From: a virus
IMG/VR virus record: IMGVR_UViG_3300031539_000145
Length of the DNA stretch: 35,503 bases
Direction: 5' to 3' (one strand)
The notes beneath the pieces were generated by a model that was not told the DNA's origin, made no database searches, and saw only the letters and a list, made by a program, of their open reading frames with translations. The translations under genes were made by a program, and so were the position numbers. Of this stretch, positions 5,174 through 27,747 are shown piece after piece (the first letter of the stretch is position 1; each line of letters begins with the position of its first letter).

Positions 5174-5193
5174 CAACATCTCCCTTCAAAAAA

Positions 5194-5607: not shown

Positions 5608-6026
5608 ACTGCCCCCTTCAGCATCTTCACAATCTTGCCCTGTTCACTTTTGAATGCCGGGATGAGAAATGGTCTTTTTGCCAGACCTCTCTTGGTGCCC
5701 TTCTCCAAGAAGAAGCCTTGCTTGAGGTTTGTGCCAATATGCCGGGTCAGCTTTGCAGGTTTGGATTTTGCAAGAGAAGCCCTGAGCCTGCCTGTCTGCA
5801 CAGCCGGGGCTTGACCCGGGGCAGAGCTTCTGGTCTTGAATTGCTTGGTGCTTTTCTTGCCCTTAGAACCTTTGGCTCTGTAGTCTTTCCCAGACTTGGG
5901 CTCTCTCATGAGCACTTTGATTTTGTTGAGAATGAGAATGCTGCCCTTGTCAAGAACCCTCTCGGTTTCTCTCTCAATCTTTGCCAGCACTTCTTTGGCT
6001 TTCCAGATGAAATTTTTTTCAGCCAT
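5604..6026 (-). CDS. HK97 gp10-family head-tail joining protein (140 aa)
   Basis: SAPGQAPAVQTGRLRASL...GTNLKQGFFLEKGTKRGLAKRPFLIPAF matches the HK97 gp10-family signature (PGxxPxxxTGxLxxS ... EfGT ... RPFl.PA). Start at the ATG at 6026 (GAAGAGAG + 6 nt). Confidence 0.8.
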   Translation of the reverse strand: MAEKNFIWKAKEVLAKIERETERVLDKGSILILNKIKVLMREPKSGKDYRAKGSKGKKSTKQFKTRSSAPGQAPAVQTGRLRASLAKSKPAKLTRHIGTNLKQGFFLEKGTKRGLAKRPFLIPAFKSEQGKIVKMLKGAV

Positions 6027-6352
6027 CACTTGCTCTCTTCAAGAATCAACTTCCAGTGGTGAGCAATCAGATGCCACTTGTCAACAAAGACAATGTCAAA
6101 CACTCTGCCATTGTGAACCACCCGGTCTTTCTGAGTGATGTCAGTGCCCTGTGGCAGTATGAACATCTTGAAGCTTGCCACCACCTCAAGCTTCTTGTAG
6201 GCTGCTCTCTCTGAAGCAGACAAAGCCTGAATGCTGCATTTCACATCAGCAATCAAGTCAGACCAGACCTCTTTCAGAGAGCCATCAGTCTCTTGACTTT
6301 CTGCAGCTCTCTGAATGGTTGCGGTTGTTTCAAAAAGGTCTTGAATGCTCAT
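6026..6352 (-). CDS. Head closure / head-tail adaptor protein (SPP1 gp16 / HK97 gp9-like), 108 aa
   Basis: Position and size fit, and the C-terminal pattern QKDRVVHNGRVFDIVFV is typical of this family. Start moved to the ATG at 6352, which forms an ATGA overlap with the connector stop. Confidence 0.7.
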   Translation of the reverse strand: MSIQDLFETTATIQRAAESQETDGSLKEVWSDLIADVKCSIQALSASERAAYKKLEVVASFKMFILPQGTDITQKDRVVHNGRVFDIVFVDKWHLIAHHWKLILEESK

Positions 6353-7218: not shown

Positions 7219-7229
7219 GCTGCTGCCCC

Positions 7230-7427: not shown

Positions 7428-7446
7428 AGGTTCACCCCCTCTCAGG

Positions 7447-7623
7447 TTATTTCTTCTTGCCCCCGCCTTTGCCGCCCTTCTTCTTGGGTGCCTTGGCAAC
7501 CATCTTGTTGCTGTACTCCCTGAAGTCCTTTGACTTCAAAAGCTCTGCGGCTCTGCCAGAGGGCACCATGCTCACTGCCTTGGTCTTGGTATTGACTACT
7601 CTCACATGTCTCTCTCTTGACAT
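7447..7623 (-). CDS. Small protein with polybasic C-terminal tail (58 aa), absent from the ORF track
   Basis: GAGGGGAG + 6 nt + ATG at 7623. Hand translation: MSRERHVRVVNTKTKAVSMVPSGRAAELLKSKDFREYSNKMVAKAPKKKGGKGGGKKK, stop TAA at 7449..7447. It falls below the 60-aa track cut-off. Confidence 0.6.
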   Translation of the reverse strand: MSRERHVRVVNTKTKAVSMVPSGRAAELLKSKDFREYSNKMVAKAPKKKGGKGGGKKK

Positions 7624-7666
7624 CGAAAACTCCCCTCACTCATCTGCTCATCCAAAGTTTAGGTCA

Positions 7667-7695
7667 GGGGCTGCAGGATGAGCTTCTACAGCCCC
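7667..7695 (-). terminator. Stem-loop downstream of the head-module paralog genes (10-bp stem with one G.U pair, 9-nt loop)
   Basis: Plus strand: ggggctgcag-gatgagctt-ctacagcccc. It lies 44 nt after the stop at 7739. No clear U-tract, so it could be an attenuator or processing site rather than a strong terminator. Confidence 0.45.
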
Positions 7696-7738
7696 CGCCC
7701 ACTGAAGCACAAGGCATCCAGCTCAACAACTTGGGCTT

Positions 7739-8167
7739 TTACTCCCAAGTATTGTAGAGAAAGTCAGCCCCGATTTTGTTTTCAAAGGCTTGATGCGGGG
7801 CATGAAGAGCTGCTGCAATTGTAGCATTGCAGATGGTGCCAAAGCCTGAATTGTCAATGACCAGAGCAACCCATGGCTTGCCTTCCACCAAGTCTTCTGC
7901 CTTCACTTCCATTACAGCCACCTTGTCTTCATCTATGACACCGGGGGTGCCAATCTTGAGGTCTGAGGGATTCGTGCCAACAGAGTCTTCTGCAGACCTC
8001 AAGCCAATCTGCATTGAGGGTGTGCCAGCCACCACCTTCATGTCAGCAATGAAAGCAGCTCTGTCAAACTCTCTCATGTCATAATACTTTGAGGTTGCCT
8101 GAGAGTCTTCCAACACAGTTGTTGGAAGTGCAACATCAACCAGCATATTGTCAGACAACTTGTGCAC
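7739..8167 (-). CDS. Head-module paralog 1 (142 aa); possible decoration/auxiliary capsid protein
   Basis: GAAGGGAG + 6 nt + GTG. By eye it is about half identical to 8215..8649 (MHKLSDNMLV..ALPTT...DMREFD.AAF.AD ... H.AFENKIGADFL.N.WE). It lies between the MCP and the connector. Confidence 0.6.
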   Translation of the reverse strand: MHKLSDNMLVDVALPTTVLEDSQATSKYYDMREFDRAAFIADMKVVAGTPSMQIGLRSAEDSVGTNPSDLKIGTPGVIDEDKVAVMEVKAEDLVEGKPWVALVIDNSGFGTICNATIAAALHAPHQAFENKIGADFLYNTWE

Positions 8168-11987: not shown

Positions 11988-14210
11988 CTATTCTCCCTTC
12001 AGCTCAGCCCTCAAAGTGCACCTGCAGTTGGGGTGCAATGGGGGTGACTGTACTGGCTCATAATTGAAATTGAGAGTTCTGGGCACCTGATTGCCTTCAG
12101 CATCATCGAAGTTGGCATCCAGACTTCCACCTTGGTCAAAGAAGGGCTCACCCAGAGCCACTGTCTTGCCATCCATTTCTGCACACCAAGGGCACATGTC
12201 AGGCTGAGAATCCCAGACAATTGCTTCAACCAATCCTGATTGTTCCCAACCCTTCACCATTCCCATGTGAGAAGCCCGGGTGCTCTCTGTTCTGGCAATC
12301 TGCTCAGCTTTCCATGTTTCCATTCTGCCAAAGAACTCTCGGGTTCTCTCGGTCAGTTGCGGGATGGTTTCACCAGCTTCAAAGCCTCTTGCCATTTCAA
12401 GTGCAAACTTGTCTGAAATATCTGTTGAGACGATTCTTGAGAAGTGGAAAGTGTACTCTGCAAACCAAGTCTGAACTTCTGGGTTAAGAACATTGAAGCT
12501 GATGCCTGCACCGATGCGATGAAGCCCCCGGGTGCCACCTGTCACAAGCTGCTGTCTGATTGGTGCTGCCATCCTTCTGTTGATTTCAGCAGCCCACTTC
12601 TCTCTCTCAAGCATGAAGTCATCCCACTCGGGCACACCCTCACCCTTGGCATTGACTCCCGAAGGCACCAGAGTCTTCAACTTGTCAAGCTGCTTGAGCA
12701 TGGCCTTCTTCCAATCCCTGAAGATGCCTCTCATGATTCTTGCCATCTCTTCTCTTCTCTCAAAGTACCACTGTTTCTCTTCTGCAAGGTGCTCATGCTT
12801 GCCATTGTTGAAGATGACAGTCATTGGGGGTGATGATTCTGCAGTACCATCACCCCCCTTTTTCAAGTGTTTTCCATTGTCAGGCTGTGCCGGGGGCTCT
12901 CCACCAGAGCCTACAGGCAGCATGGTTGTTGGCAGCCAAGCAGTCTTGCCCCAAGGCACAGGCTCAAGCCCTTCTTTCTCTCTCTGCTCATTGATTGTGA
13001 TGACACCGTTCTTCAGGTATGACTCAGACTTGGTGAGGTTAAATTCTTTGTCTTCAGGCACCGGGTTGTCAAAGGCAACAAACAGCCTCTCATCAAACTT
13101 GGGTGTGAGGTCTTGGTTGAACTTCTGCTCAAGTCTCTTCAGCCGGGGCACAATGGTGTCTTTCTGATATTGCCTCTCACCAGCATCAGCATTGGCAAGA
13201 TTCACTTTCTCTGTTGTGACCTTGGAGATGGGGATGCCATAAGCATTGAGGATTTCATCCCGGCTGAACTGCTGCCCCTTCAAGAAGGCCATCTCTTTTG
13301 GTGAGAACCCGAGCTTCTCAAGTTCCATGTCACCTTCAAGCACAGCAGGCAGCCCAGACTTGCTGCCACCATAGAGCTGCAGCCATCTCTCCCTGATTTC
13401 TTTCACTTTTCTGGTGTTCACCTTGCCTTTGTACTTGAGCAAGAAGTCAGGTCTGGCATTGTTCTTGAGCAGGGCTGCCTCATAAGCATCCATGCTCTCT
13501 TTTCTTGTGACAGCAGCAATCACAGCCTGCATGGGTGACATCCCATAATAGACATTGTGAGGGTTTGGAAAGCGGATGTGAATAACATCTTCAGCAGGCA
13601 GAGCAACCTCTTTGTCTTTGAATCTGCCATACAAATAGCCCTCAACAAACTTGTCATCATCAGCTTTTCCCGGCACAATGGTGACATATTGAGAAGGCAG
13701 AACCCAGAGGCTCTGTGGTGCACCGAGAGCCCCCGGGGGTGCATACATGAAACCATCCCCGGTCAGCTCTGCAAAGAGTTCAAAGAGTTCAAGCAGCTCA
13801 AAACCATCATAGACTTGATTGGCCTGCTTCATAATATCAAGAACAGGGTGCTCAATAACCTCTTCAATCATGACCGCTTTTCTGAGCCTGAGGTCAATGT
13901 GACTTTTGGTGGCAAGGTGGGCAAGTTGCTTCTTGTCAACAGCCCGGGTGTCAATCCCTCTTCTTAGATTTGGGTATGTCTTCTGACCCCGGTTTGTTTG
14001 CACATATAGCCTGAGAGGTACAGCAGCAACCGAGTTGGCATTCAGTGTTGCAGCCCTGTACACCCAATGCCTGTAGTGCTTCAGCAGTTGCTCTGCCTTT
14101 GCCTTCTCCATTTCACCAAAGAGCTGAGCATAACTTGGGTGTCTGAAGATGGGCTTCACCAAAGTTCCAACCGGGCTGAACAGTTTGCTGAAGAAGTTTA
14201 TGACCCCCAT
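11988..14210 (-). CDS. Portal protein (HK97-type) fused to a C-terminal SPP1 gp7 / Mu F-like head morphogenesis domain (740 aa)
   Basis: The N-terminal ~450 aa are portal-like and sit directly after the large terminase. The C-terminus WKAEQIARTESTRASHMG...WDSQPDMCPWCAEMDGKTV...SPPLHPNCRCTL is the MuF/gp7 signature. Confidence 0.85.
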   Translation of the reverse strand: MGVINFFSKLFSPVGTLVKPIFRHPSYAQLFGEMEKAKAEQLLKHYRHWVYRAATLNANSVAAVPLRLYVQTNRGQKTYPNLRRGIDTRAVDKKQLAHLATKSHIDLRLRKAVMIEEVIEHPVLDIMKQANQVYDGFELLELFELFAELTGDGFMYAPPGALGAPQSLWVLPSQYVTIVPGKADDDKFVEGYLYGRFKDKEVALPAEDVIHIRFPNPHNVYYGMSPMQAVIAAVTRKESMDAYEAALLKNNARPDFLLKYKGKVNTRKVKEIRERWLQLYGGSKSGLPAVLEGDMELEKLGFSPKEMAFLKGQQFSRDEILNAYGIPISKVTTEKVNLANADAGERQYQKDTIVPRLKRLEQKFNQDLTPKFDERLFVAFDNPVPEDKEFNLTKSESYLKNGVITINEQREKEGLEPVPWGKTAWLPTTMLPVGSGGEPPAQPDNGKHLKKGGDGTAESSPPMTVIFNNGKHEHLAEEKQWYFERREEMARIMRGIFRDWKKAMLKQLDKLKTLVPSGVNAKGEGVPEWDDFMLEREKWAAEINRRMAAPIRQQLVTGGTRGLHRIGAGISFNVLNPEVQTWFAEYTFHFSRIVSTDISDKFALEMARGFEAGETIPQLTERTREFFGRMETWKAEQIARTESTRASHMGMVKGWEQSGLVEAIVWDSQPDMCPWCAEMDGKTVALGEPFFDQGGSLDANFDDAEGNQVPRTLNFNYEPVQSPPLHPNCRCTLRAELKGE

Positions 14211-15556
14211 GCACCCTCTCTTTCCAGAAGTATAGCTTCCCTCTCTTCTTCTTCCATTTCTTCTTCGGGCTCAGGTTCTTCAAGGCTGTGCAGTTTGGGC
14301 TCAATAACCCCATGCTTCATGAACATGGCAGCATAGCGGGTCATGTCCATCGCGTGGTCAAGACCTTTGGCGGGCTTCTCATTCTTGTCAAGGTGATATG
14401 ACTCAACCTCTGTCAGCCAATCCTCAATCCCCTCTCCCTCAGGCTCTACACTGAGCCCGGGTCTGCCATCGCCCGCAATGCCAAGCCTGCCTCTGACACA
14501 CTGAGTGCCATCGAAGACAGCATTGGAAGTGTCTCTGCAGTCAAGACCCTCATTCTCTGCATCAGCTCTCAAGCCTGCAGCAGAAGGGTCAAAGGTGAAA
14601 ACCCTCTCGGGCAGTTCCCACCCGGGCTTAGGGTCTTTTGGTTTGAGCTGAATAATAAGGCTCATGCCATAGTGCTTGAGAATACTGATGAACATGGTGG
14701 GCAGCACCTGCCTCTTGTAGAACATCTTGAGCAGGTGCATTCTGTTGTCTGAGTCAATGCCCCACAGCCCAATCACAGCCGGGTCTGAATACCCCTCATC
14801 AATCGAGAGCAAGAACCACTTGAACTCATGAATGTCTCTGTGAAACAGGTGAGCTTCTCGGGAGAAGTTGTCATAAATGAGCCCCTCAAAAGCAACCCAC
14901 TTGCCAAGCACAAAGCGGTCTCTGTACTGACCAGTGAACTTGGCAAGCATGTCAATGTAGTCTTGGGGCAAGAAGAAGTTGTCAGTGCTCTTGGTCTGGA
15001 AGACTGCCCGGGTGCTGTCCTTGTCTTTGAAAAAACGCTTGTGCAGAAAGTGAGAAGGCGCATCAGGGTTGGTTGCAAGACCAAGCTGTCTGTAGGGGTC
15101 TGAGTTGTTTCTGAGCCTGCCCAAAAGCATCATGTACTCAGCCTCATCCATCTCTCGGGCTTCATCCACAAAGGCTGAGCCAAGGTTCAGTGAGGCAATC
15201 CTGAGAGGGTCATCCAGCCCGCCATAATAGATTTGGCCTGCACCATGAATCTTGATGGTGTGCTCTGTCTTGTTGTGCTTGTAGCTTCCCTCAGGCAAGA
15301 CCGGGTCAAGGCTGCCATCCTTCTCAAGCAGCACTTTCAGGGTTGTTGCCTTCAGAGCTGTCAGGGTCTTTCTGAAGAGCCCCACCACGTTGCCTTCATG
15401 TCTGGCCTTCAGAGCTGCATTGTGAGCAAGGGTTCTTGACTTCCCGGCACCAAAGGCACCTGAAAAGAGTTTCTCTTTTGCATTGGAGAATAGAAAGTCA
15501 TGCTGCTTGGGCAGCAGTTCAACCTTCACTCTGTTCTCTGGCAGTGTTGCAATCAA
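14198..15556 (-). CDS. terL: Terminase large subunit (452 aa)
   Basis: Walker A: SGAFGAGKSRT. Walker B: GSAFVDEAREM. Nuclease-domain acidic motifs: LSIDEGYSDPAV and LDHAMDMTRYA. TTGA overlap with the upstream ORF. Confidence 0.9.
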   Translation of the reverse strand: MIATLPENRVKVELLPKQHDFLFSNAKEKLFSGAFGAGKSRTLAHNAALKARHEGNVVGLFRKTLTALKATTLKVLLEKDGSLDPVLPEGSYKHNKTEHTIKIHGAGQIYYGGLDDPLRIASLNLGSAFVDEAREMDEAEYMMLLGRLRNNSDPYRQLGLATNPDAPSHFLHKRFFKDKDSTRAVFQTKSTDNFFLPQDYIDMLAKFTGQYRDRFVLGKWVAFEGLIYDNFSREAHLFHRDIHEFKWFLLSIDEGYSDPAVIGLWGIDSDNRMHLLKMFYKRQVLPTMFISILKHYGMSLIIQLKPKDPKPGWELPERVFTFDPSAAGLRADAENEGLDCRDTSNAVFDGTQCVRGRLGIAGDGRPGLSVEPEGEGIEDWLTEVESYHLDKNEKPAKGLDHAMDMTRYAAMFMKHGVIEPKLHSLEEPEPEEEMEEEEREAILLEREGAWGS

Positions 15557-15774: not shown

Positions 15775-16257
15775 CTACTCATCATCCTTCTTTGTAGTTC
15801 CATTGAGCTTGCCGTTCTGCTCATTCTCTTCATGCTGTTGCTGGTCAGGTGGCTGAGCAATGACATACTCAATGATGGTCTTTGTCTTGGCTTCAACTTC
15901 ATGCACCTGCAGAACAGTACCATCGATGCGGTCAAGAATTTCTCTCACAAGGCGGGGGGTGCCTCTCTCAATTGCATGGTCAAAGGTTCTCAAGACAAGA
16001 GCCTCTCCCCATGTCAACTTTTTGAGACCCTTCTTGGTGCACTTCTGTTGAGCAATGTGCCTCATGAGGTCAGTGAGCTTCTTGAAGTTCAGGTCACCCT
16101 TCTTCTTGCCTGAGGGGTTGCCAGACTCCCCGGGCTTGAATGCCCAAGGGTGGTCACCATTGAAAGTGCCATCTGGATTTCTGAACTCTGGATGGTTGGG
16201 CTCATCATCATCGGTTGACATGTCAGGTGGGTCTGAATTATTATTCTCGCTGAACAA
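15775..16257 (-). CDS. Putative terminase small subunit (DUF5681-like), 160 aa
   Basis: FKPGESGNPSGKKKG resembles the DUF5681 motif (F.PGqSGNP.Gr.kG) seen in many phage small terminases. It is the first gene of the late arm, upstream of TerL. Confidence 0.6.
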   Translation of the reverse strand: MFSENNNSDPPDMSTDDDEPNHPEFRNPDGTFNGDHPWAFKPGESGNPSGKKKGDLNFKKLTDLMRHIAQQKCTKKGLKKLTWGEALVLRTFDHAIERGTPRLVREILDRIDGTVLQVHEVEAKTKTIIEYVIAQPPDQQQHEENEQNGKLNGTTKKDDE

Positions 16258-16390
16258 GCTTTCACACCCCTGTAAGATTTTCCACTGCTTGCCTGAGTGT
16301 TGTAACTCCTTCTCCGTGTGGAATATACAAGGGGGAGAGGGGCTGTCAAGGGCTTTTTTCTGCCAGAAGTTCTGAGAGCCTCTGCTTTTG

Positions 16391-16478
16391 GGTTTGGAGA
16401 GAGGTCAGAAAGAGGGCAGGGTGGTTCTCTTCTGCTCTCTTCTCATCTCCTCTCTTCTCTTCTTGTCTCATCTCATCT
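16391..16478. repeat. Purine block (16391..16424) abutting a 54-nt polypyrimidine CT tract (16425..16478, only 5 purines)
   Basis: ggtttggagagaggtcagaaagagggcagggtgg | ttctcttctgctctcttctcatctcctctcttctcttcttgtctcatctcatct, with internal CTCTTCT and TCTCATC micro-repeats. Confidence 0.8.
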
Positions 16479-16778: not shown

Positions 16779-17093
16779 ATGAAAAGACCCGAGAAAGCAA
16801 CCCTTCTTCAAGCAACTCTCTCTCTGTCTTCAGTCAAAAACAGACCGAACCACTGCCCTCTGACCTCTGCTGATGCGTCTTCTGTCTCAGCCGGTCAGAA
16901 CCCACTTCAAACGAGTCAGGGGGCAGTTGTAAAATCATGGTTGCGTGGTTGTGGTAGGCATCGATGTATCTTTGACCCTGACTGCAAACCGGGGGTGAAT
17001 GGCAGTCAGCTCAAGAAGAGGGGTGGGCTAAAATCAGAAGTGGTTTCTGAAAGTAGTCCACTCAAGTCTGACCACCAGAAGGGATGTGAATGA
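16779..17093 (+). CDS. Hypothetical Ser-rich basic protein, possible first early gene (104 aa)
   Basis: AGAGGA + 6 nt + ATG, with an ATGA overlap onto the next gene. Codon usage looks atypical (more CpG codons), so it may instead be a non-coding leader. Confidence 0.4.
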   Translation: MKRPEKATLLQATLSLSSVKNRPNHCPLTSADASSVSAGQNPLQTSQGAVVKSWLRGCGRHRCIFDPDCKPGVNGSQLKKRGGLKSEVVSESSPLKSDHQKGCE

Positions 17094-17317
17094 TGGCACA
17101 GCATGAAGACTATTATGATGATGAAGAATGGGAAGAGCGATGTGAGATGTTCGCTGACCCCGGTGGAAATTCAGCTCTCAGAGCAGCCAGCAAAGACAAC
17201 CCCCGAAACCTGCCATGCCCAAATTGCGGAAGAGAAAACATGCTGACACCAGCAGATAGGGCACAAGGTTATCAGTGCGATATTTGTGCCGATGCTGCTG
17301 AAAGAGGTGGCTATTAA
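17090..17317 (+). CDS. Small acidic zinc-ribbon protein (75 aa)
   Basis: CPNCGRENMLTPADRAQGYQCDIC gives a CxxC...CxxC arrangement. AGAAGGGA lies upstream. Confidence 0.7.
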   Translation: MMAQHEDYYDDEEWEERCEMFADPGGNSALRAASKDNPRNLPCPNCGRENMLTPADRAQGYQCDICADAAERGGY

Positions 17318-17387: not shown

Positions 17388-18404
17388 ATGAAAGAGATGT
17401 TCACCAGTGACCTGCACATGAGCAGGCAAAACAAAGAGAGGCTTGAGCTCATCAATGACATCATTGAAGAGTACAGGGCTCAAGGTTATGTTCTCACACT
17501 CAGACAGCTCTATTATCAGCTTGTCAGCCGGGATGTCATTCCTAATGCACAGGCTGAGTACAAGAAGCTTGGTGTTCTGCTCACCAAGGGCAGGATGGCG
17601 GGGGTGGTTGATTGGGATGCGATTGAAGACCGGGTCAGAGTTCCCAAGCTGCCCTACTATGCCGAAGACATTTCAGATGCTCTGGGTGACATTGCAAGGC
17701 AGTACAGGCTTGACAGGCAGGCAGAGCAGGATGTGTGCATTGAGGTTTGGTGTGAGAAGGATGCCCTCAGTCAGGTCTTATACAGGGTCACTGAAGAGTA
17801 CCATGTGAGGCTCATGGTCAACCGGGGCTATTCCAGCACCACAGCCATGCACGATGCTTATGAGAGACTCAGTGAGGCTGAAGCTGAAGGCAAAGAGGTT
17901 GTCATTCTCTATGTTGGTGACCATGACCCTTCTGGCCTTGACATGCTCAGAGACATCAGAGACAGACTTGAAGAGTTTGGAGTTTTTGCAGAAGTTGTGC
18001 CAGTGGCTCTGACTCAAGAGCAGATTGAAGAGCACAACCCACCCCCCAACCCGGCAAAGATAACAGACCCCCGGGCAGGTGACTACATTGCGGTGCATGG
18101 CAATACTTCATGGGAAGTCGATGCACTGCCCCCTCAGGTACTCCACAAGCTCATTGAAGAAGCCATCCTTGAGAGGATTGATGAAGACCTGTACACCGGG
18201 CAGCTTGACCGCGAAGAAGAAGACAAGAAGGCTCTTGAAGTTTATGCCGGGATTGACAAGAAGAACCTGCTCAACCTGCATGAGACTTTGAAAAGCCTGA
18301 AAGAGAATGCTGAAGATGCAGATGCTGATGTGGGGATTATTGCAGCTCAGGCTGAAGCAGCTCTCACCTTCTTCAATGTCAGCTTTGAAGATTTGCTTGA
18401 ATAG
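17388..18404 (+). CDS. Topoisomerase VI-A / Spo11-like protein ('Mini-A' class): 5Y-CAP + Toprim (338 aa)
   Basis: TLRQLYYQLVS is the catalytic-Tyr motif (T-V-R-D-I-[YF]-Y). EVWCEKDA carries the Toprim Glu and ILYVGDHDPSG the Toprim DxD. GAAGGGAG + 6 nt + ATG. Confidence 0.8.
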   Translation: MKEMFTSDLHMSRQNKERLELINDIIEEYRAQGYVLTLRQLYYQLVSRDVIPNAQAEYKKLGVLLTKGRMAGVVDWDAIEDRVRVPKLPYYAEDISDALGDIARQYRLDRQAEQDVCIEVWCEKDALSQVLYRVTEEYHVRLMVNRGYSSTTAMHDAYERLSEAEAEGKEVVILYVGDHDPSGLDMLRDIRDRLEEFGVFAEVVPVALTQEQIEEHNPPPNPAKITDPRAGDYIAVHGNTSWEVDALPPQVLHKLIEEAILERIDEDLYTGQLDREEEDKKALEVYAGIDKKNLLNLHETLKSLKENAEDADADVGIIAAQAEAALTFFNVSFEDLLE

Positions 18405-18415
18405 GAGATGGCAAC

Positions 18416-18637
18416 ATGAATGGACACATCAAAGACATAGAAGCAAAAATCAGAGCTGAAGAAATTGTCAGAGAGTTGGATGACCTTGCTGCCAGTACAC
18501 TCAGGATGCATCGCATCAGCAAGAAGCTTCTTTTGGACAAATGGAAAGTTGCAGCCAGAATCATCATTGACAGAAACAACTTGAAGGCTGAGCTGCTTTC
18601 CAAAGAGCTTGAAGAACTCAAGCAGATAGGAGAGTAG
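18416..18637 (+). CDS. Small coiled-coil protein (73 aa) between the Mini-A and GHKL genes
   Basis: Heptad-like charged sequence (IEAKIRAEEIVRELDDLAAS...LKAELLSKELEELKQIGE). AGGAGA + 7 nt + ATG. Gaps of 11 nt and 3 nt to its neighbours. Confidence 0.65.
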   Translation: MNGHIKDIEAKIRAEEIVRELDDLAASTLRMHRISKKLLLDKWKVAARIIIDRNNLKAELLSKELEELKQIGE

Positions 18638-18640
18638 GCA

Positions 18641-19840
18641 ATGAGTTGGTTTGAAGTTGACAAGCAGGGCTTGAGAGCCCTTGTTGCAGACAGACCCAAG
18701 GGCTTCATTCTGAGAGAGCTGATTCAGAATGCTTGGGATGAGCCCGGGGTCACCAAGGTCACTGTGACCACTTCCAAAGAGAGAGGTTTGGCTGAAATCT
18801 TTGTTGAGGATGATGCCCCTGAGGGCTTCTATGACCTCAGACACGCCTTCACCCTGTTTGCAGACACCCGCAAGAGAACAGACCCCACCAAGAGGGGCAG
18901 GTTCAACTTTGGTGAGAAAGAGGTTCTTGCTCTGGCTGAATCTGCAATCATTCACACTGTCAAAGGTGGAGTGGTCTTCAACCCGGGTGGTGTCAGAAAG
19001 AACCTGAGAAGTGTCAGAGACTCGGGCTCTTCTGTTCAGGTCAAGGTGAAGATGAACTTTGCCGAGTATGAGCAGATGCTGACAGAGGTTGACACCTACC
19101 TGCCACCCCAAGGCATCTCAACTATTGTGAACGGTCAAGAGCTGCTTCACAGAATATCACTGGTGAGCTTTGAGGCAAAGTTGCCAACAGAAATTCTCAA
19201 GGATGAAATCCTGAGAAGAACAATTCGGAAGACCACCATCAATGTTCACCGGGTTCTTGAAGGTGAGACTGCCAAGCTCTATGAGATGGGCTTGCCTGTC
19301 TGTGAGACAGGTGACCAGTTCCACTATGACATTCAGCAGAGAGTACCCCTTGACCACAAGAGAGACAATGTGCCTGCCAGCTTTCTCAGGGCTGTCAGGG
19401 GTGAGGTTGCCAACATGGTCATTGATGCGGTTGAGCCCGAAGAGGCTTCTGCCAACTGGCTCAGGGATGCACTGAGCAGCAACCGGGTGAATGAAGACAC
19501 TGTGAAAGAAGCTCTGACAAAGCGGTTGGGTAACAACCTTGCAGTGCCAACCCCGGGTGACAAAGACTCTACAATTCTGGCTCAGCTCAATGGGTACAGG
19601 CTTGTGAGACCTTCAGAGCTCTCAAAAGAAGAGTGGGAGAATGCCCGGGCTGCAGGCGTCATACCCGCCACCACTCAGCTCTTCCCACCCGAGAACAGAA
19701 AGCCAGTTGTTCTGGTGGATTACAAGCAGGTTGCCGGGAGAGCTGTTGACCTGATTAGAGGGCACTTCAATGAAGGCGCAAGAGCCAAGCACTTCTTGAG
19801 CTGGATTGCAGGTCTTGGTTGGGATGAGAGAACTAATTAG
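18641..19840 (+). CDS. GHKL (Bergerat-fold) ATPase-like protein, Hsp90/MORC/Topo VI-B-like N-terminus with degenerate glycine lids (399 aa)
   Basis: N box: ELIQNAWDE. G1-like: VEDDAPEGF (Asp kept, glycines partly lost). G2-like: KRGRFNFGEKE (compare GxFGxGF). Confidence 0.65.
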   Translation: MSWFEVDKQGLRALVADRPKGFILRELIQNAWDEPGVTKVTVTTSKERGLAEIFVEDDAPEGFYDLRHAFTLFADTRKRTDPTKRGRFNFGEKEVLALAESAIIHTVKGGVVFNPGGVRKNLRSVRDSGSSVQVKVKMNFAEYEQMLTEVDTYLPPQGISTIVNGQELLHRISLVSFEAKLPTEILKDEILRRTIRKTTINVHRVLEGETAKLYEMGLPVCETGDQFHYDIQQRVPLDHKRDNVPASFLRAVRGEVANMVIDAVEPEEASANWLRDALSSNRVNEDTVKEALTKRLGNNLAVPTPGDKDSTILAQLNGYRLVRPSELSKEEWENARAAGVIPATTQLFPPENRKPVVLVDYKQVAGRAVDLIRGHFNEGARAKHFLSWIAGLGWDERTN

Positions 19841-19853
19841 AAGGGAGTGAACT

Positions 19854-20102
19854 TTGAAGGGATATGGCAGACTTCAGAAGGTTCTTGCTCAGGTCAAAAG
19901 TGGTGAGCTGAAGATGCTGGCTGCCAGAGACCAGTTGATGCATGACAAGGGCTCTCTGAACAGAGCTGCTTTCAATCTTGCAGTTGAAGAGGGTTTGTGC
20001 ATTGTCTGTGCCAAGTACAAGAGCTGCATCGTGCATGACTCCACTCAGTACAACAACAAAGGCATGTGCACTTGGTTCAGTGCAGTGAAGAAGGGAAGTT
20101 GA
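19854..20102 (+). CDS. Hypothetical protein (82 aa)
   Basis: GAAGGGAG + 6 nt + TTG at 19854. Confidence 0.6.
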   Translation: MKGYGRLQKVLAQVKSGELKMLAARDQLMHDKGSLNRAAFNLAVEEGLCIVCAKYKSCIVHDSTQYNNKGMCTWFSAVKKGS

Positions 20103-21976: not shown

Positions 21977-22277
21977 GCTTGGTGATGTCTTCAATGCCAT
22001 GAAAAAAGACAAGCAGGAAAGAAGAGCCAAGAGAATGAAGAGGGTGCACAGTTGCCTTGAAGATTTTGATGGCAAGTGCACCAAGAGAGGCTTCAGGCTT
22101 GTTGTCAAAAATCATGGTCATCATTGGATTGTGAAAACAACTGAAGCAACCTTTGAGTGGTTTCCAAGTTCAGGCAAGCTTGTCATCAATCAACAATGGG
22201 AAAAAGTCAGACGTGCATATTCTACTGATGATGTTTGGAGAATCATTGAACACTTCAAGAAGGGAGAAGCAAGTTGA
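21969..22277 (+). CDS. Hypothetical protein (102 aa)
   Basis: The ATG at 21969 sits within the last codons of the upstream gene, suggesting coupling. An alternative ATG lies at 21957. The start is uncertain. Confidence 0.5.
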   Translation: MSELGDVFNAMKKDKQERRAKRMKRVHSCLEDFDGKCTKRGFRLVVKNHGHHWIVKTTEATFEWFPSSGKLVINQQWEKVRRAYSTDDVWRIIEHFKKGEAS

Positions 22278-23092
22278 CTGAATTACTTGTTCACAGGCAG
22301 AGCAGTATTCTCACCTATGTCAGATGTGGTGAGCAGTACAGAAGAAGGTATGTTGAGGGAGATGTCAGACCCCCGGGGGTGAGGATGCTCAGAGGCACCG
22401 GGGTTCATGCTGGTGCCAAGCATAACTTCAGGCAGAAAATTGAGAGCCATGAAGACCTGAAGGGTGATGACATCATTGACTTCTCCATTGCCACTTTCGA
22501 TGACAGGCTCAAGAATGAAGGCGTGTCTCTTGCACCAGATGAGAAGAGCAGGGGTGAAGGCATTGTTGTTGGTGAAGAGAGAGACCGGGTTCACAGGCTG
22601 TCAACCTTGTATGCCGATGACTTTGCCCCGGTCATTCAGCCTGTCTCAGTTGAGCAGACAATTGAGGCAGAGTTCCCGAGCAAGGGCTTCAAGCTGCATG
22701 GCACCCTTGACCTGAAAGACACCCGGGAAATTGTCATTGACCTGAAGAGCTCTGTGAGAAAGCGGTCAAAGGGTGACCAGCACAAAGACTTTCAGCTCAC
22801 CATGTACTCTGCACTGGTCTTCACTCTTGAGAAGAAGATGCCTGCAGGTGCAGAGCTGGTGGTTCTGGTTGACAAGAAGAGTGGGGCAGAGGTTCAGATT
22901 CTGCCCACCACAAGAACTGTGCAAGACTTTGCAGCATGGTTCAGGTACATTGAGGCAGTTCACAATGGCATCACAAAGGGAGTCTTCCCACCAGCAAACA
23001 AGGCAGATTGGTGGTGCAGCCCCAAGTGGTGTGGGTACTGGTTTGATTGTCAATTTTGGTCAGACTCTGAAAGAAGCAGGGTCACAGCTTAG
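22274..23092 (+). CDS. PD-(D/E)xK exonuclease, Cas4/RecB-like, with a 4-Cys cluster (272 aa)
   Basis: HGTLDL...EIVIDLKS supplies the D...(D/E)xK motif and FQLTMY the QxxxY motif. Cysteines: RCGEQY at the N-terminus plus WWCSPKWCGYWFDC at the C-terminus. GAAGGGAG + 7 nt + TTG. Confidence 0.8.
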   Translation: MTELLVHRQSSILTYVRCGEQYRRRYVEGDVRPPGVRMLRGTGVHAGAKHNFRQKIESHEDLKGDDIIDFSIATFDDRLKNEGVSLAPDEKSRGEGIVVGEERDRVHRLSTLYADDFAPVIQPVSVEQTIEAEFPSKGFKLHGTLDLKDTREIVIDLKSSVRKRSKGDQHKDFQLTMYSALVFTLEKKMPAGAELVVLVDKKSGAEVQILPTTRTVQDFAAWFRYIEAVHNGITKGVFPPANKADWWCSPKWCGYWFDCQFWSDSERSRVTA

Positions 23093-23106
23093 AAGGGAGT
23101 TGTTGG

Positions 23107-24705
23107 ATGTTTGAGGGAAGTGAGAAGCAAGAACCTGAACAGGTGAATGCAGAAGTGGTGCCTGAGGATGAGCTTGATGTTCTCAGGGGTGTGAAGCAAG
23201 AGGCTCAGGGCGCAACTGAGTTGTTGAAGGCAGGCATGGCCTTGGTCAGGCTTGAGAACAACACTCAGATGCAGGTGGCTGTGCAGAGACCACGGAATGA
23301 AGAAATGGTGCTGAAGAAGTGTCTTGCAGAGCTCAAGCTGTACCCTGACATGGCTGCCGATGCAGTCTACGTCAAGCCAGTGGGCAAAGGTGCTGGTGGG
23401 GTCATGAAGTATGTTGAAGGGCTCTCAATCAGAGCTGCAGAGTCTCTGGCAACAAGGTGGGGCAACTGTGCCTATGGTGCAGAACCCATTGAAGATGATG
23501 GTGAGACATTCACCTTTGGTGTCGTCTTCTTGGATTATGAGACCAATGTGAGGGCTGCCAGACTTGGCAGGGTCTCAAGAAGATACAAGAAGAGTGAGAG
23601 AAGGGGTGGGGGTTATGCTGTCACCCCTGAAGACAGGTTCAATGATGTTGTCATTCCGGCAAAGCAGAGCAAGATTCTCAGGGAGTGCATCCTGAGAGCT
23701 CTGCCTTCAGGTCTCACCAAGGCATACATGTTGAGAGCCAAAGAGCTCATGAAAATACAGTTCACGCCCGAGCAGCAGAAGAAGCTCAGAGAGCAGATTC
23801 TAAGCCAGTTTGACAAGCTCAAAGTGACAGAAGAGCAACTTGCTGAAATTCTTGGCAAGCCTCTGAACATGGGAGTCACCCAGAATGAGCTCATCCACCT
23901 GAAGGGCATTCTCAATGCTCTCAAGGATGGTGAGACAACTGTTGAGCAGCTCATTCAAGACAGAAAAGGTGACCTGCAGAAGACTCAGACAGCTTCTGCT
24001 GAGGATGCTCTTCTGGCAGCTCAGGCTCAGGCCAGTGAGAAAAAAGAAGAGAGCAAATCAGGGCAGCAATCATCGCCAACAGTTGAAGAAGGCAGACAAG
24101 AAGAGCTGAAAGAAAGAGAAGCGAGTCAACCCCCGGCTGCCAAGACAGACCCCAAGAAGTCAAAAGCTGCTACTCCCAAGCAGAAGATTGTGAATATGTT
24201 GACCCCCCTTGCAATGGCAAATCAAACTGCATTCAACAAAGCCTGCAAGCAAGCTGTGGGGGGGGTGATTCAAGAGGGGTTGGACATGGAAGTTGCCCTC
24301 AGCAATTTCACCCTGAAAGAGCTTGAGAGAATCAATGAAGCTCTGAAAAACCCTCAGGCAGACCCCCCTGCTGAGAATAGGGGTGCTATTACACCCGATG
24401 AGGCAAAAGAACCTGCCACAGAGCCTGCAGCAGCTCAGAAACCACCTTCTAAGGGGTCTGCCCCTGAGCAGACAGAACCCGAGAAGCCCAAAGCTTCTGG
24501 TGGCAATCCCGAGAAAGCAGGGCTCATCAAGTTCATCAAAGAGCATGGCTCTTCAGTTGAGAACAAGATTGGCATCATCTCTGAGGTTGTTGGCTCAGAT
24601 GTCAATGACCAAGCTCTTGCAGACATGGCTGATAATCCCGGGCTCATTGAAGACATTGCTCACTTGAGGTCAGTGAAGAACATCCTCAGCATGATGGGCG
24701 AATAG
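23107..24705 (+). CDS. Putative single-strand annealing / recombination protein with a long low-complexity C-terminal tail (532 aa)
   Basis: It lies directly after the exonuclease, as in exo/SSAP pairs. YVEGLSIRAAESLATRWGN and AKQSKILRECILRAL loosely resemble Rad52/Sak/Erf-type motifs. The C-terminal ~230 aa are rich in P, A, E, K and Q. I could not confirm the family by eye. Confidence 0.4.
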   Translation: MFEGSEKQEPEQVNAEVVPEDELDVLRGVKQEAQGATELLKAGMALVRLENNTQMQVAVQRPRNEEMVLKKCLAELKLYPDMAADAVYVKPVGKGAGGVMKYVEGLSIRAAESLATRWGNCAYGAEPIEDDGETFTFGVVFLDYETNVRAARLGRVSRRYKKSERRGGGYAVTPEDRFNDVVIPAKQSKILRECILRALPSGLTKAYMLRAKELMKIQFTPEQQKKLREQILSQFDKLKVTEEQLAEILGKPLNMGVTQNELIHLKGILNALKDGETTVEQLIQDRKGDLQKTQTASAEDALLAAQAQASEKKEESKSGQQSSPTVEEGRQEELKEREASQPPAAKTDPKKSKAATPKQKIVNMLTPLAMANQTAFNKACKQAVGGVIQEGLDMEVALSNFTLKELERINEALKNPQADPPAENRGAITPDEAKEPATEPAAAQKPPSKGSAPEQTEPEKPKASGGNPEKAGLIKFIKEHGSSVENKIGIISEVVGSDVNDQALADMADNPGLIEDIAHLRSVKNILSMMGE

Positions 24706-24721
24706 AAAGAGAGGTTTGATT

Positions 24722-25954
24722 GTGGCAAAGATAATTGCTCTCAGAGCAAGGAACGTGAAGAGGCTCTCTGCTGTGGAAATCATCCCCCCGGCTGATGAGT
24801 CTGTTGTTGTTATTGGGGGTGAGAATGCACAGGGCAAGACCTCTGTGCTTGACTCAATCATGTATGCCTTGGCAGGTGGCAAGAGCATCCCCGATGACGT
24901 GGTCAAGCATGGAGAGAAAAAGGCAACCATTGAAATTGACCTTGGTGAATTCAAAATCACCCGGGTCTTGGGCAAAGGTGCAAGGCTTGAAGTCAAAGCT
25001 GCAGATGGTGAGAAAGTCAACTCACCGCAGCAGGTACTTGACAAGCTTGCCGGGAAGCTCACCTTTGACCCTCTCCACTTCCAGAGGCTGAGTGAGACCA
25101 CCCCCGGGAGAAGAGAGCAGGCTCTCATCCTGAGAGAGCTGGTGGGGCTTGACTTCAGTGGGTATGACAAGAAGAGGCAGATTCTCTTTGACCAGAGAAC
25201 TGAAGTCAACAGAGACCTGAAGAGAGCTCAGGGTACTCTTGAGACAATGGCCTTCTTCCCTCAGGCACCCAAAGAAGCCATCAGGGTCACCGATGTTGCT
25301 GCAGAGCTGCAGAAGGCTGCACAGCACAATGCAGAGGCTCTGAAGCTGAGCAGAGGTCTGGGCAATCTTGAAACCACCATTGAAACCATCAAGAAGAACA
25401 TCGAGCAGCAGCAGTCTGAGCTTGAGAGAGTCATTGCAGAGAAGATGAAGTTGCAGGCTCAAGCCAGAAGCTTCAAGCAGATTGACACAGAGGCTCTCAA
25501 CAAGAAGCTTGAAGAGGCTCAAGAAATCAATGAGCATGTGGCAAAGAACAAGCAGAGAAATGAGCTCAACAAGCTGTCTTCTGAGCTTGAGAAGAAGTCA
25601 GAGCTGCTCACAGAAACCATTGAAGAACTCGATGGTGAGAAAGAGAAGAAGTTGGCTGAGGCTGACATGCCTGTTGAGGGGCTGACTTTTTCTGAAGAAG
25701 GGGTCTTGTTCAATGGGGTGCCGTTCCACAACTGCAGCTCAGCAGAGCAGCTCAAGCTCTCATGTGCAATGAGCATCAAGATGAATCCTGAGCTCAAGGT
25801 CATGCTCATCAGGGATGGCTCTCTGCTTGATGACAACAGCCTTGCAACTCTCAGGGAAATGGCAGGCAAGTCAGACCATCAAGTTTGGCTTGAGAGAGTG
25901 GGCAAGGGTGAAGAGTGCACAGTCATAATTGAAGATGGTTCTGTTGTTCAGTGA
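24722..25954 (+). CDS. SMC/Rad50/SbcC-like AAA ATPase with a central coiled coil (410 aa)
   Basis: Walker A: GGENAQGKTS. About 200 aa of coiled coil. C-terminal Walker B/D-loop: KVMLIRDGSLLDD. Start set to the GTG at 24722 (GAGG + 7 nt). Confidence 0.75.
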   Translation: MAKIIALRARNVKRLSAVEIIPPADESVVVIGGENAQGKTSVLDSIMYALAGGKSIPDDVVKHGEKKATIEIDLGEFKITRVLGKGARLEVKAADGEKVNSPQQVLDKLAGKLTFDPLHFQRLSETTPGRREQALILRELVGLDFSGYDKKRQILFDQRTEVNRDLKRAQGTLETMAFFPQAPKEAIRVTDVAAELQKAAQHNAEALKLSRGLGNLETTIETIKKNIEQQQSELERVIAEKMKLQAQARSFKQIDTEALNKKLEEAQEINEHVAKNKQRNELNKLSSELEKKSELLTETIEELDGEKEKKLAEADMPVEGLTFSEEGVLFNGVPFHNCSSAEQLKLSCAMSIKMNPELKVMLIRDGSLLDDNSLATLREMAGKSDHQVWLERVGKGEECTVIIEDGSVVQ

Positions 25955-25982
25955 GCTGGTGCAGCTCAGAAGGGAGAAGTTT

Positions 25983-26309
25983 ATGAAGAAGTTAGGTGGT
26001 CAGAAAGAGCTCATACCCGAGAATATTCCCGAGCTCAAAGACAAGGATACTGCACAGAAGCTTGAGCAAATATGGAAGCTCAGGGATGGTGCCAAGGTGC
26101 ACGACAAGCTTCAGGCAGAAGCCAAAGAAGTCATCCAAGGTTGGGTGCTTGGGCTTCCAAAGAAAGACCAGAGCATCGGCCAGTGCAAGTGTGGTGATTT
26201 CATTCTGTCCTTCAAGGTTGAGATGCAGGAAGAGAAACCTGTGTCATACAAAACCAAGAAGGGCAAAAAAGTCAGGGTGAAGTTTGCCCCTGAAAATGAA
26301 GAAGAGTGA
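25983..26309 (+). CDS. Hypothetical protein (108 aa)
   Basis: GAAGGGAG + 6 nt + ATG at 25983 (the track ORF starts at 25929). Confidence 0.55.
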   Translation: MKKLGGQKELIPENIPELKDKDTAQKLEQIWKLRDGAKVHDKLQAEAKEVIQGWVLGLPKKDQSIGQCKCGDFILSFKVEMQEEKPVSYKTKKGKKVRVKFAPENEEE

Positions 26310-26322
26310 GAGGGGGCTGCCC

Positions 26323-26943
26323 TTGTATATTCCATTGGAGTTGAGCCTTGAGCTCACAGCTTTTGAAGCACCAAATCCCCGAGAGCTCAAGCACATCTTC
26401 ACTCTCTTTGTGCCGGGAAGACCAAGACCCAAGCAGAGGCTCAGGCATATCATTGCAGGGCTGTGGTCAAAGTATAAGCCCCATGCAATGCTGCACCAGC
26501 TCAAGGGGTTTCTTGCTGGTCTGCAGTTCTGTTTTGCCACACCTGAGCTGCCTGCTGATGAGCTCAAAGAAAGAGTGAGAGAGAATCTGTCATGCCTGAT
26601 GGCAATTGACAATCTGCCTGAGGGCAGGCCAAAGGTCATCGGGTTCACACCACCAGACACTGCAGACTTTGAGAACAAGGTGGCTCTGGCTGCTCAGCAG
26701 CTATACAAAGAGGCACCCTGCATCAAGAGGGCTGCTGTGTTCTTCAAGTTCATCTACTCAATGAGAAATTGGGCAGACCTTGACAACCTTGAGAAGTCTA
26801 TTCTCGATGGTTTGGTGAAGGGCAGAGTTCTCAGTGATGACAGGATTGTTGAAGTGCATCTCAGCTTCAGGGAATATGCAAAGGGCACAAGACTTGAGGG
26901 GTCTCTGGTCAAGGTGTATGAGGTCAGAGACCCCCAACAATAG
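26323..26943 (+). CDS. rusA: RusA-family Holliday junction resolvase with an internal insertion of about 70 aa (206 aa)
   Basis: N-terminal FVPGRPRPKQRLR and C-terminal NWADLDNLEKSILDGLVKGRVLSDDRIV are RusA signatures. GAGAGGGGG + 6 nt + TTG at 26323, with an alternative ATG at 26296. Confidence 0.75.
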   Translation: MYIPLELSLELTAFEAPNPRELKHIFTLFVPGRPRPKQRLRHIIAGLWSKYKPHAMLHQLKGFLAGLQFCFATPELPADELKERVRENLSCLMAIDNLPEGRPKVIGFTPPDTADFENKVALAAQQLYKEAPCIKRAAVFFKFIYSMRNWADLDNLEKSILDGLVKGRVLSDDRIVEVHLSFREYAKGTRLEGSLVKVYEVRDPQQ

Positions 26944-26955
26944 AAAGAGGACAGC

Positions 26956-27747
26956 ATGGCAAGACCAAGAAGCATCAAGCCAGAAGAGCTGAACATGCTG
27001 ACCTTGTTCAAGGTAATTATTGTCAAGTGGAAAGAGCACAATCCTGACATTACAAAAATGAAGGGAAGAGTGGAGTTCTTGAAACTCAAGGCCGCAAGAA
27101 CAACAGACACCATCGATGATGAGAAGTTTGATGTGCAGGGTCTCTTCTTTGCCATGTTGAGACATTCAGCAGGTGGCAGAAGCCCGGGTGAAATTGTTGC
27201 CGGGAGTGGTGAGCACCTGACACTGAAGCAGCTTGCAAGATACCTGAGAAAGACAGTTGAAGAGCTGCTTCCACCTTTGCAGCAACTGATGAGAACTGAC
27301 AGGGTCAAAGTTGTTGTGAAATCTTCAGAGGGCTCACAGGATGAAGAACCCGAAGAAGAACCCGAAGAAGACCAAAGCCGGACATCCGAGAAGGTCAATT
27401 TGTACAGAGCCTGCCGGGTCTTCTTTCTTGCATGGGAAGAATTGCACTTCAAAAGCTACAACAGAAAGTATGACAAGAGCCAGTGGGATGAGAAGAACCT
27501 GCAGCAGACATTGACGCCAGACAAGCTGACAAGGTTCATTGCCTATGCTTTCCACTTCCACCAGCAGGATGGCAAGGTTGGCATCCCCACGCTTGAAGAG
27601 AGAAGTGCCAGCAAATTGAAGACACCATCACTTGACAATTTCTTGAAGAGGGTTGCAGACTACAGCTCAACATTGAGGGGTGAAGAGTGGGAAAGAAGCC
27701 AAAACTGGTCAACAGAGTTCCTGAAGAAACACCAAAGCCCGAAGTGA
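26956..27747 (+). CDS. Hypothetical protein with an HTH-like segment and an acidic linker (263 aa)
   Basis: LTLKQLARYLRKTVEEL looks like a helix-turn-helix. EEPEEEPEED forms an acidic stretch. The function (replication organiser or regulator) is only a guess. Confidence 0.35.
   Translation: MARPRSIKPEELNMLTLFKVIIVKWKEHNPDITKMKGRVEFLKLKAARTTDTIDDEKFDVQGLFFAMLRHSAGGRSPGEIVAGSGEHLTLKQLARYLRKTVEELLPPLQQLMRTDRVKVVVKSSEGSQDEEPEEEPEEDQSRTSEKVNLYRACRVFFLAWEELHFKSYNRKYDKSQWDEKNLQQTLTPDKLTRFIAYAFHFHQQDGKVGIPTLEERSASKLKTPSLDNFLKRVADYSSTLRGEEWERSQNWSTEFLKKHQSPK

Follow-up and report, generated by a model that had tools for sequence, protein, structure and literature searches.

A GHKL ATPase gene of Hsp90/sacsin type beside a phage Mini-A gene: a candidate, optional partner for a Topo VI-A/Spo11-like protein

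Introduction

Within the Topo VI/Spo11 family, Mini-A proteins form a third branch. Takahashi et al. (2020; PMC7671362), who named them, defined their RxxYY motif, pointed to an xWELDAL box that sets them apart from Topo VI and Topo VIII and described them as devoid of that N-terminal portion of the CAP domain which binds the B subunit; they also asked whether a non-canonical B-like ATPase exists, sought a Bergerat-fold neighbour of Mini-A, found none and regarded such a 'Mini-B' as 'yet to be discovered'. In a 2024 review, the function of Mini-A still counts as unexplored. Here we report on a 35,503-nucleotide (nt) segment of a tailed-phage genome (IMG/VR record IMGVR_UViG_3300031539_000145; 'the window' throughout), in which a Mini-A gene and a small open reading frame (ORF) are followed by the gene for a GHKL ATPase (17388 to 19840). 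A preliminary description of this DNA, made from its letters alone, had seen in the three genes a conserved-looking trio and a possible split type IIB topoisomerase, and had stated that Mini-A was described without a B-like partner. On the last point we agree, as none is reported in the searchable literature.

Several described systems resemble the locus in part. Like Topo VI-B, Top6BL and the N-terminal half of Topo VIII, the ATPase of the window joins a Bergerat-type ATPase to a second domain and is encoded beside a Topo VI-A-like cutter; unlike them, its predicted fold is nearer to Hsp90/TRAP1 and its motifs nearer to sacsin, an H2TH domain was not found in it, its family pairs with the cutter facultatively and in most family members a metalloprotease forms the C terminus. 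The N-terminal and middle (N+M) domains of Hsp90/TRAP1 and the sacsin SRR provide the best structural (Foldseek E ~1e-10) and profile matches, and the N box (ELIQNA-D) resembles that of sacsin, as do the G1 and G2 variants. Identity to these proteins is, however, ~10-12%, scores fall below curated cut-offs and the context is that of a phage; moreover, the C-terminal dimerisation domain of Hsp90 is missing and the family has invariant motifs of its own. Long family members share HExxH..H and a small zincin fold with Wss1/SPRTN (WLM/SprT) and the minigluzincins, albeit with weak matches, but in the family this domain is fused to a GHKL ATPase and the window protein is without it. T4 rIIA-like GHKL proteins are comparable in phage origin and N-terminal GHKL domain, and in the variable C-terminal domain of the family; rIIA itself is larger, membrane-associated and without detectable sequence relationship to the window protein, and we know of no link between rIIA proteins and Mini-A. 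Finally, Wadjet (JetABC with JetD/MksG), OLD/Gabija GajA and paraMORC also combine an ATPase with a Toprim or Topo VI-A-like cutter, yet their ATPases are of SMC/ABC type or are MORC proteins with other effectors, JetD/MksG are without the catalytic tyrosine, and all of these serve host defence, whereas our locus is phage-borne and has no significant match in PADLOC.

Results and Discussion

By its sequence, the first gene of the locus is classified as a Mini-A, as the preliminary description had proposed from three catalytic signatures. The presumed catalytic tyrosine in the RxxYY motif, the Toprim glutamate and the DxDxxG motif all fall on columns that are invariant in a 12-sequence Mini-A alignment (Table 1), and so do W242-E243-x-D245-A246 of the WELDAL-type box. 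The protein matches PHROG 6247 ('DNA topoisomerase', E=5.7e-90) and the published exemplar from Pseudomonas phage NP1 (40% identity, E=9e-57), and the gene is viral by location, with portal and terminase genes in the window. Compared with the subfamily of Takahashi et al. (PMC7671362) it is alike in ~300-aa (amino acid) size, motifs and phage origin, and we see no essential difference in the gene itself; what the window adds is a GHKL neighbour with which it is most likely co-transcribed. Scans with Pfam (including TP6A_N) and NCBIfam gave no match for the protein, nor did its profile find any PDB sequence at E<=1. Mini-A is rare: of 50,697 phage records searched with tblastn, 84 hold a relative (0.17% of isolate phage genomes), and in IMG/VR the gene is carried by at least 587 contigs of 2.9 million. 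Relative to the locus L004 (loci are given by our L numbers), the ratio of non-synonymous to synonymous substitution rates (dN/dS) is 0.25 for the Mini-A core; the C-terminal tail is weakly constrained (Table 1). We considered this tail as a docking element for the GHKL protein and rejected the idea: it is present in the Mini-A of L225, a locus without the ATPase, so that it does not seem to be partner-specific. Moreover, it is absent in L009, and linked and unlinked Mini-As have tails of overlapping length.

The three ORFs of the preliminary description are on the plus strand as it had placed them, and encode 338, 73 and 399 aa, separated by spacers of 11 nt (18405-18415) and 3 nt (18638-18640). 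An AGGAG signal lies ~9 nt 5' of both the ATG at 18416 and that at 18641, and no terminator-like site was found on the plus strand between 17388 and 19840. Given these signals, the tight spacers and the lack of terminator-like sites, co-transcription of the three genes is the most likely mode of their expression.

The third gene is predicted to encode a GHKL ATPase of Hsp90/sacsin type that binds ATP. An AlphaFold2 (AF2) model of its product (predicted local distance difference test, pLDDT, 88.7; predicted template modelling score, pTM, 0.82) and Foldseek place the protein inside the GHKL fold, in line with the preliminary description: the best 50 matches in the PDB were all Hsp90/TRAP1 N+M domains (from E=9e-11, probability 1.00), with no Topo VI-B among them. 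Consistent with this, the N box and the G2-like box, both spotted in the preliminary description, keep their key residues invariant across an alignment of 45 homologues (Table 1) and align with ELIQNAEDA and GRFGIG of sacsin, respectively. The G1 box had been called degenerate; instead, it is a conserved variant specific to the family (VEDDAPEGF), which aligns with the equivalent stretch of sacsin. Direct family searches returned weak N-terminal matches only, namely Pfam SACS (E=0.01; 16.1 bits against a cut-off of 32.8), the NCBIfam sacsin-like model NF047352 (E=1.8e-4; 21.9 bits against 50) and PADLOC TmtA (E=7.5e-4), and a profile match to sacsin 5v44 had E=0.023. With scores below the curated cut-offs for a sacsin-like domain, we take the relation to sacsin as one of resemblance only. 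Among viral models (BFVD), the best Foldseek match was an unnamed protein, also of 399 aa (TM 0.78), followed by rIIA-like proteins (E 4e-9 and weaker) and by GyrB-like and topo II ATPase domains.

Is the neighbourhood of the two genes more than an accident of one phage? When IMG/VR loci were collected with the ATPase as seed, 9 of 80 carried a Mini-A within 8 kb (L066, L074, L075, L076, L079, L080, L087, L094, L109), as did one of 80 genome-derived loci (L147). Because Mini-A is so rare (84/50,697, see above), 9/80 amounts to a large enrichment. Over 167 GHKL loci, Mini-A was in fact the most frequent conserved neighbour (12 loci), followed by tyrosine integrases (10), a 96-aa protein (9), serine recombinases (8), DUF932 (7) and SNF2 (6). 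Seen from Mini-A, the association is sparse: the ATPase was found in 1/57 and, in a further set, 2/80 IMG/VR loci (L377 and L306, the latter being the contig of L008), in 1/80 metagenome loci (L290), only 35 of which extend at least 1.5 kb downstream, and beside none of the 84 Mini-A genes in isolate phage records. Nor is a generic GHKL gene a recurrent neighbour of Mini-A, since among 96 larger same-strand neighbours from 56 loci a scan with Pfam revealed no recurrent HATPase; it found helicases, PD-(D/E)XK, DUF2800, DUF5131, DUF932 and ParB. Adjacency of Mini-A and the GHKL gene does recur outside the window phage, with 14 contigs.

In neighbour-joining trees, whose long branches make the number of independent pairings approximate, these 14 linked contigs are spread over three or more Mini-A clades and a minimum of three to four GHKL clades. 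Usually Mini-A comes first, then 0.1-1 kb of small variable ORFs and then the GHKL gene (window, L004/L008, L074, L076, L079/L080, L087, L094 with a gap of 4.5 kb, and L109); L075, L147, L290 and L377 show the reverse order. In L094 and L109 the Mini-As are 54% identical and mutually the closest inter-clade relatives, whereas their GHKL proteins (37%) are further apart than any other pair, a sign of re-pairing. For so rare a gene, Mini-A lies beside the ATPase far more often than expected by chance, and one inherited synteny block does not account for it; the pairing is nonetheless clearly facultative. A functional link between Mini-A and the GHKL protein is likely, since Mini-A accompanies the family more often than any other conserved gene, does so in several lineages and occurs with either gene first.

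Other ATPases were met in the same surveys. In one locus only, L034 (7995-12570), Mini-A is followed by a ThyX-like 491-aa ORF and then by a second, unrelated GHKL protein, of 726 aa, that matches Pfam HATPase_c_3 (E=2.3e-8). In Flavobacterium phage FPSV-S1 (L002), whose Mini-A (5001-5924) is the closest to ours from an isolate phage (55% identity), a 422-aa ABC ATPase of AAA_23/SMC_N type (3154-4422) is encoded ~600 nt upstream. A 'kinase' upstream of the Salvo Mini-A was tried as a GHKL candidate and rejected, being a P-loop kinase. The class of ATPase that pairs with Mini-A may differ from phage to phage. The clade of L074, L076, L079, L080 and L087 has a second protein of 479 aa with an N-box-like REFVSNAIDR, ~2.3 kb downstream of its GHKL-zincin gene (e.g. 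L080:10315-11754), and, upstream, a 202-aa SprT-like protein with HExxH and a zinc ribbon (e.g. L076:3698-4306) and a serine recombinase.

The ATPase itself belongs to a large, so far unnamed family of phages and prophages. A homologue search with the window protein found at least 628 relatives, some with precomputed Pfam HATPase_c, HATPase_c_3 or SACS matches, and an exhaustive scan yielded 702 clusters (50% identity, E<=1e-30); in the searchable literature we found no description of it. In reference genomes the members sit mostly in metagenome-assembled genomes (MAGs) of Planctomycetota, Verrucomicrobiota, Acidobacteriota, Acetobacteraceae and Solirubrobacterales, with few in archaeal MAGs; by phylum, elements of Planctomycetota, Verrucomicrobiota, Acidobacteriota and Actinomycetota are the main carriers. 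A typical member has 470-510 aa, with ~480 aa for the full-length form, the family-own invariant motifs YEMGLP and QQKVPL..DRDN and, in ~95% of the family, an extra C-terminal domain with an invariant HExxH..H. The latter has a profile match to Wss1p (5xbn, E=0.011), and Pfam WLM is matched by 5/25 members; the domain's AF2 model (pLDDT 92) finds the minigluzincins abylysin, jannalysin and selecase in Foldseek (E ~7e-3) and superposes on the Wss1 structure with TM 0.51 and a root-mean-square deviation of 4.0. The architecture of the family is accordingly modelled as a GHKL domain, an Hsp90-like middle domain and a small zinc metalloprotease resembling Wss1 and the minigluzincins.

Other members deserve a brief mention. 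In P0205 (753 aa) the GHKL middle domain has its invariant D-V-QQKVPL motif split by an intein-like insertion (CVAPQTRIL...SHNC). As a rule, inteins occupy critical sites of DNA-metabolism proteins, so that this motif may be functionally central. L106 (6073-7389), L095, L115, L128 and L201 have a tandem paralogue 1.7-2.5 kb upstream of the family member, with Pfam HATPase_c (E=6e-5) and a C-terminal HEVAH motif of its own. The sole ATPase homologue in isolate or GenBank phage records is from a 485-kb uncultured phage (LR745208.1, L001; 6001-7458, 485 aa, 45% identity) and has no Mini-A within 6 kb.

The window protein stops at residue 399, before the zincin domain, which is confined to the long members. 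The same protease-less form is seen in L004 (P0002, the 73% identical orthologue) and L008. Could it be a decaying, pseudogene-like remnant without function? Missing the protease of ~95% of its family, it has last 50 residues that are modelled poorly (pLDDT ~67) and evolve faster (dN/dS 0.65). Against decay speak an intact ORF with all invariant ATP-site residues, a good Shine-Dalgarno (SD) signal and tight operon packing, an orthologue that is equally short, and a best structural match in BFVD that is also 399 aa long. The dN/dS against L004 (70-73% identical) is 0.34 overall, 0.30 for residues 1-150 and 0.29 for residues 151-349. These values, with that of the Mini-A core, indicate that both genes are under purifying selection, and we think it very improbable that the short form is a remnant. 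Rather, the copies in the window and in L004/L008 appear by sequence comparison to have lost the protease yet to remain under purifying selection.

Comparison with relatives of the window phage delimits the 73-aa ORF and the GHKL gene with their spacers as an accessory cassette (Table 1), and similar stop-plus-SD spacers (TAGAAGGGAGT-like) flank the cassette genes. The closest relative (L225/L305) has a terminase 78% identical and a Mini-A 72% identical over the full length including the tail; a further one (L009; terminase 66%, Mini-A 69%) shares the downstream gene order. Both are without the cassette. The trio supposed in the preliminary description does not hold: the 73-aa ORF, though probably expressed, has no family match in profile searches and no homologue in any other linked locus, including the closest GHKL-bearing relatives, where an unrelated 144-aa Cys-rich ORF (an acidic double zinc-ribbon in L004) fills the slot instead (L004/L008). 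The 73-aa gene thus belongs to no conserved system. In L225 the variable region after Mini-A has instead a 366-aa ORF (6789-7889) that looks DUF932-like by eye.

TABLE 1: Coordinates of the features discussed, as positions in the window.
Feature	Coordinates	Strand	Remarks
Portal	11988..14210	minus	PHROG 2662, E=2e-98
Terminase-like ORF	14198..15556	minus	
Mini-A gene	17388..18404	plus	338 aa; truncated 5Y-CAP and Toprim; Topo VI-A/Spo11 family homologue
RxxYY motif, R39-Q-L-Y42-Y43	17502..17516	plus	Y43 presumed catalytic tyrosine; R39, Y43 invariant
Toprim glutamate E123 (EKDA)	17754..17756	plus	invariant
Toprim metal-binding motif G177-D178-H-D180-P-S-G183 (DxDxxG)	17916..17936	plus	all seven residues invariant
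W242-E-V-D-A-L247 ('xWELDAL' box)	18111..18128	plus	in nearly all 60 Mini-A sequences inspected
Mini-A C-terminal tail, ~residues 289-338	18252..18401	plus	weakly constrained, dN/dS 0.69
Accessory cassette, ~1.45 kb	18405..19853	plus	73-aa ORF, GHKL gene and spacers; absent from closest relatives
73-aa ORF, lineage-specific	18416..18637	plus	probably expressed; SD-like AGGAG, tight packing
GHKL ATPase gene, 399 aa	18641..19840	plus	Hsp90-like middle domain; short protease-less form
N box, E26-L-I-Q-N30-A-W-D33-E	18716..18742	plus	catalytic Glu and Mg-binding Asn; E26, N30, D33 invariant in 45 homologues
G1 variant, V-E-D57-D-A-P-E-G62-F	18803..18829	plus	family-specific; D57, G62 invariant; D58, P60, F63 at least 90% conserved
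G2-like box, R85-G86-R-F-N-F-G91-E-K93	18893..18919	plus	R85, G86, G91, K93 invariant
82-aa CxxC ORF, right border of cassette	19854..20102	plus	homologues directly after Mini-A in L009 (8886..9149) and L225 (~6019..6282)
PD-(D/E)XK exonuclease	22274..23092	plus	plus-strand operon
SbcC-like ATPase	24716..25954	plus	plus-strand operon; PHROG 1499
RusA-like resolvase	26284..26943	plus	plus-strand operon

What, then, does the ATPase do beside Mini-A? The preliminary description thought of a split type IIB topoisomerase-like or DNA-cleaving machine; in this view two Mini-A and two GHKL subunits (the latter as a non-canonical 'Mini-B') would form an enzyme for ATP-gated cleavage or strand passage. 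Its building blocks stood up: a Mini-A gene, a GHKL fold with intact ATP-site residues and a second domain beside a cleavage subunit, which is the logic of Topo VI and Topo VIII, and an adjacency that recurs; moreover, a non-canonical Mini-B was explicitly left open by Takahashi et al. (PMC7671362). What did not stand up is the rest. The best structural matches are Hsp90/TRAP1 rather than Topo VI-B, no H2TH domain was recognised in the 399-aa protein and no switch residue was assignable, and Mini-A is without the CAP part that binds B (PMC7671362). Constant co-occurrence with the A subunit, as for a B subunit, was not found either: pairing is facultative both ways and close relatives do without the cassette. 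Furthermore, a protease, a domain alien to topoisomerase B subunits, is found on most partners, and among the long family members inspected no GHKL-Mini-A fusion was seen. An ATPase of Hsp90/sacsin type, facultative pairing and cassette-less relatives together make an obligate A2B2 strand-passage enzyme unlikely, and we regard the split type IIB topoisomerase as an improbable solution overall.

We tentatively favour, at somewhat less than even chances, a different role, namely that the GHKL protein is no strand-passage B subunit but an accessory factor that uses ATP to work on Mini-A-DNA complexes. Several findings weigh against it. About 97-98% of Mini-A loci have no ATPase, and ~90% of ATPase loci have no Mini-A (70/80 viral, 79/80 genome); the number of independent pairings is approximate, as said above, and the base rate of Mini-A in ATPase-carrying environmental phage lineages is bounded from below only (by the 587 or more IMG/VR contigs). 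In L225/L305 and L009 a homologue of the 82-aa ORF follows ~13-15 nt after the Mini-A stop, and these cassette-less relatives indicate that in this phage group Mini-A can do its work without the ATPase. The window copy is without the very protease on which an adduct-removal idea would build. Lastly, neighbourhoods of the family are rich in variable accessory genes (DUF932, methylases, integrases), so that co-location in an accessory hot spot is a possibility.

This last point leads to an explanation that would do without any partnership and which we consider rather unlikely, though the main competitor: the GHKL gene may be an independent, rIIA-like accessory gene for counter-defence or host takeover, ATP-driven and usually protease-armed, which lies in the variable slot directly behind Mini-A at the head of the early operon because the two share an insertion hot spot and are expressed early, not because they act together. 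It would account for a cassette that is present or absent among close relatives, for interchangeable small ORFs between Mini-A and GHKL, for loci without Mini-A (the 70/80 and 79/80 above) and for a family that is usually solitary in variable neighbourhoods of mobile genetic elements (integrases, DUF932, methylases, SNF2). In addition, Foldseek against viral models returns rIIA-like GHKL proteins, and for rIIA-type proteins an N-terminal GHKL with variable C-terminal domains and a role in counter-defence have been described (PMC7824862). Set against this, a gene as rare as Mini-A is the top conserved neighbour, and a hot spot poorly explains both gene orders, several clades of both proteins and at least one discordant pair; beyond the weak N-terminal match to TmtA (E=7.5e-4), PADLOC and anti-defence families give nothing.

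In the accessory-factor reading that we favour, Mini-A would cut DNA by means of Y43 and its Toprim metal site, and the GHKL protein, in the manner of other GHKL clamps, would form a dimer upon ATP binding, with ATPase activity and physical contact to Mini-A-DNA complexes on which it acts. Wss1 and SPRTN remove topoisomerase-DNA adducts. The Wss1-like protease on most partners therefore suggests turnover of a covalent Mini-A-DNA adduct: long forms may digest or release Mini-A that stays covalently attached after cleavage, whereas the protease-less form of the window may only remodel or regulate Mini-A-DNA complexes. The operon, with its PD-(D/E)XK exonuclease, SbcC-like ATPase and RusA, could be a module for break-driven, recombination-dependent replication, which would fit a Spo11-like cut.

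As to the wider context, the minus strand of the window up to ~16.2 kb holds structural and packaging genes (Table 1), and a long plus-strand operon begins at ~17 kb. Its larger ORFs match a PD-(D/E)XK exonuclease, an SbcC-like ATPase, RusA and a DNA methyltransferase; absence of polymerase, primase and helicase genes, as claimed in the preliminary description, was checked in part only. A recombination module (22274-27747; PD-(D/E)XK exonuclease, a 532-aa PHROG 3657 protein, SbcC-like ATPase of PHROG 1499 and RusA-like resolvase) is syntenic with L009, and its PD-(D/E)XK gene recurs beside GHKL genes without Mini-A in L068, L069 and L102. Directly upstream of Mini-A (17090-17317) lies a 75-aa acidic zinc-ribbon ORF (CPNC...CDIC). 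The strand-switch region (16215-16478) has divergent matches to sigma-70-like promoters (16215-16244 on the plus and 16349-16322 on the minus strand, 11/12 each) and three pyrimidine-rich repeats at 15-nt spacing (16425-16478), where the cumulative GC skew is lowest. At the DNA level, isolate phages gave neither near nor distant matches to the window.

Conclusions

New here is a Topo VI-A-like cutter with a GHKL ATPase neighbour, most likely co-transcribed, which makes the latter the first candidate partner for Mini-A. The pairing is of low penetrance, which reduces the weight of this finding, and if there is a partnership it is an optional and not a constitutive one; still, the window and ~13 other linked contigs offer the first concrete and testable answer to the question raised when Mini-A was named. 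An Hsp90/sacsin-type ATPase joined to a Wss1-like protease suggests ATP-controlled proteolysis of DNA-bound proteins, and the natural phage relatives with and without the cassette provide a ready genetic comparison. A bolder scenario, to which we assign a low probability, is that Mini-A and the GHKL protein (with its Wss1-like protease) form a novel, self-contained 'cut and release' module for phage DNA breaks: Spo11-like, protein-linked breaks would start recombination-dependent replication, the GHKL protein, as a non-canonical 'Mini-B', would gate cleavage with ATP, and the protease would free the DNA end. If true, such a module would give viruses a counterpart of Spo11 with Top6BL, adduct processing included, and would inform on the origin of type IIB topoisomerases and of the meiotic break machinery.

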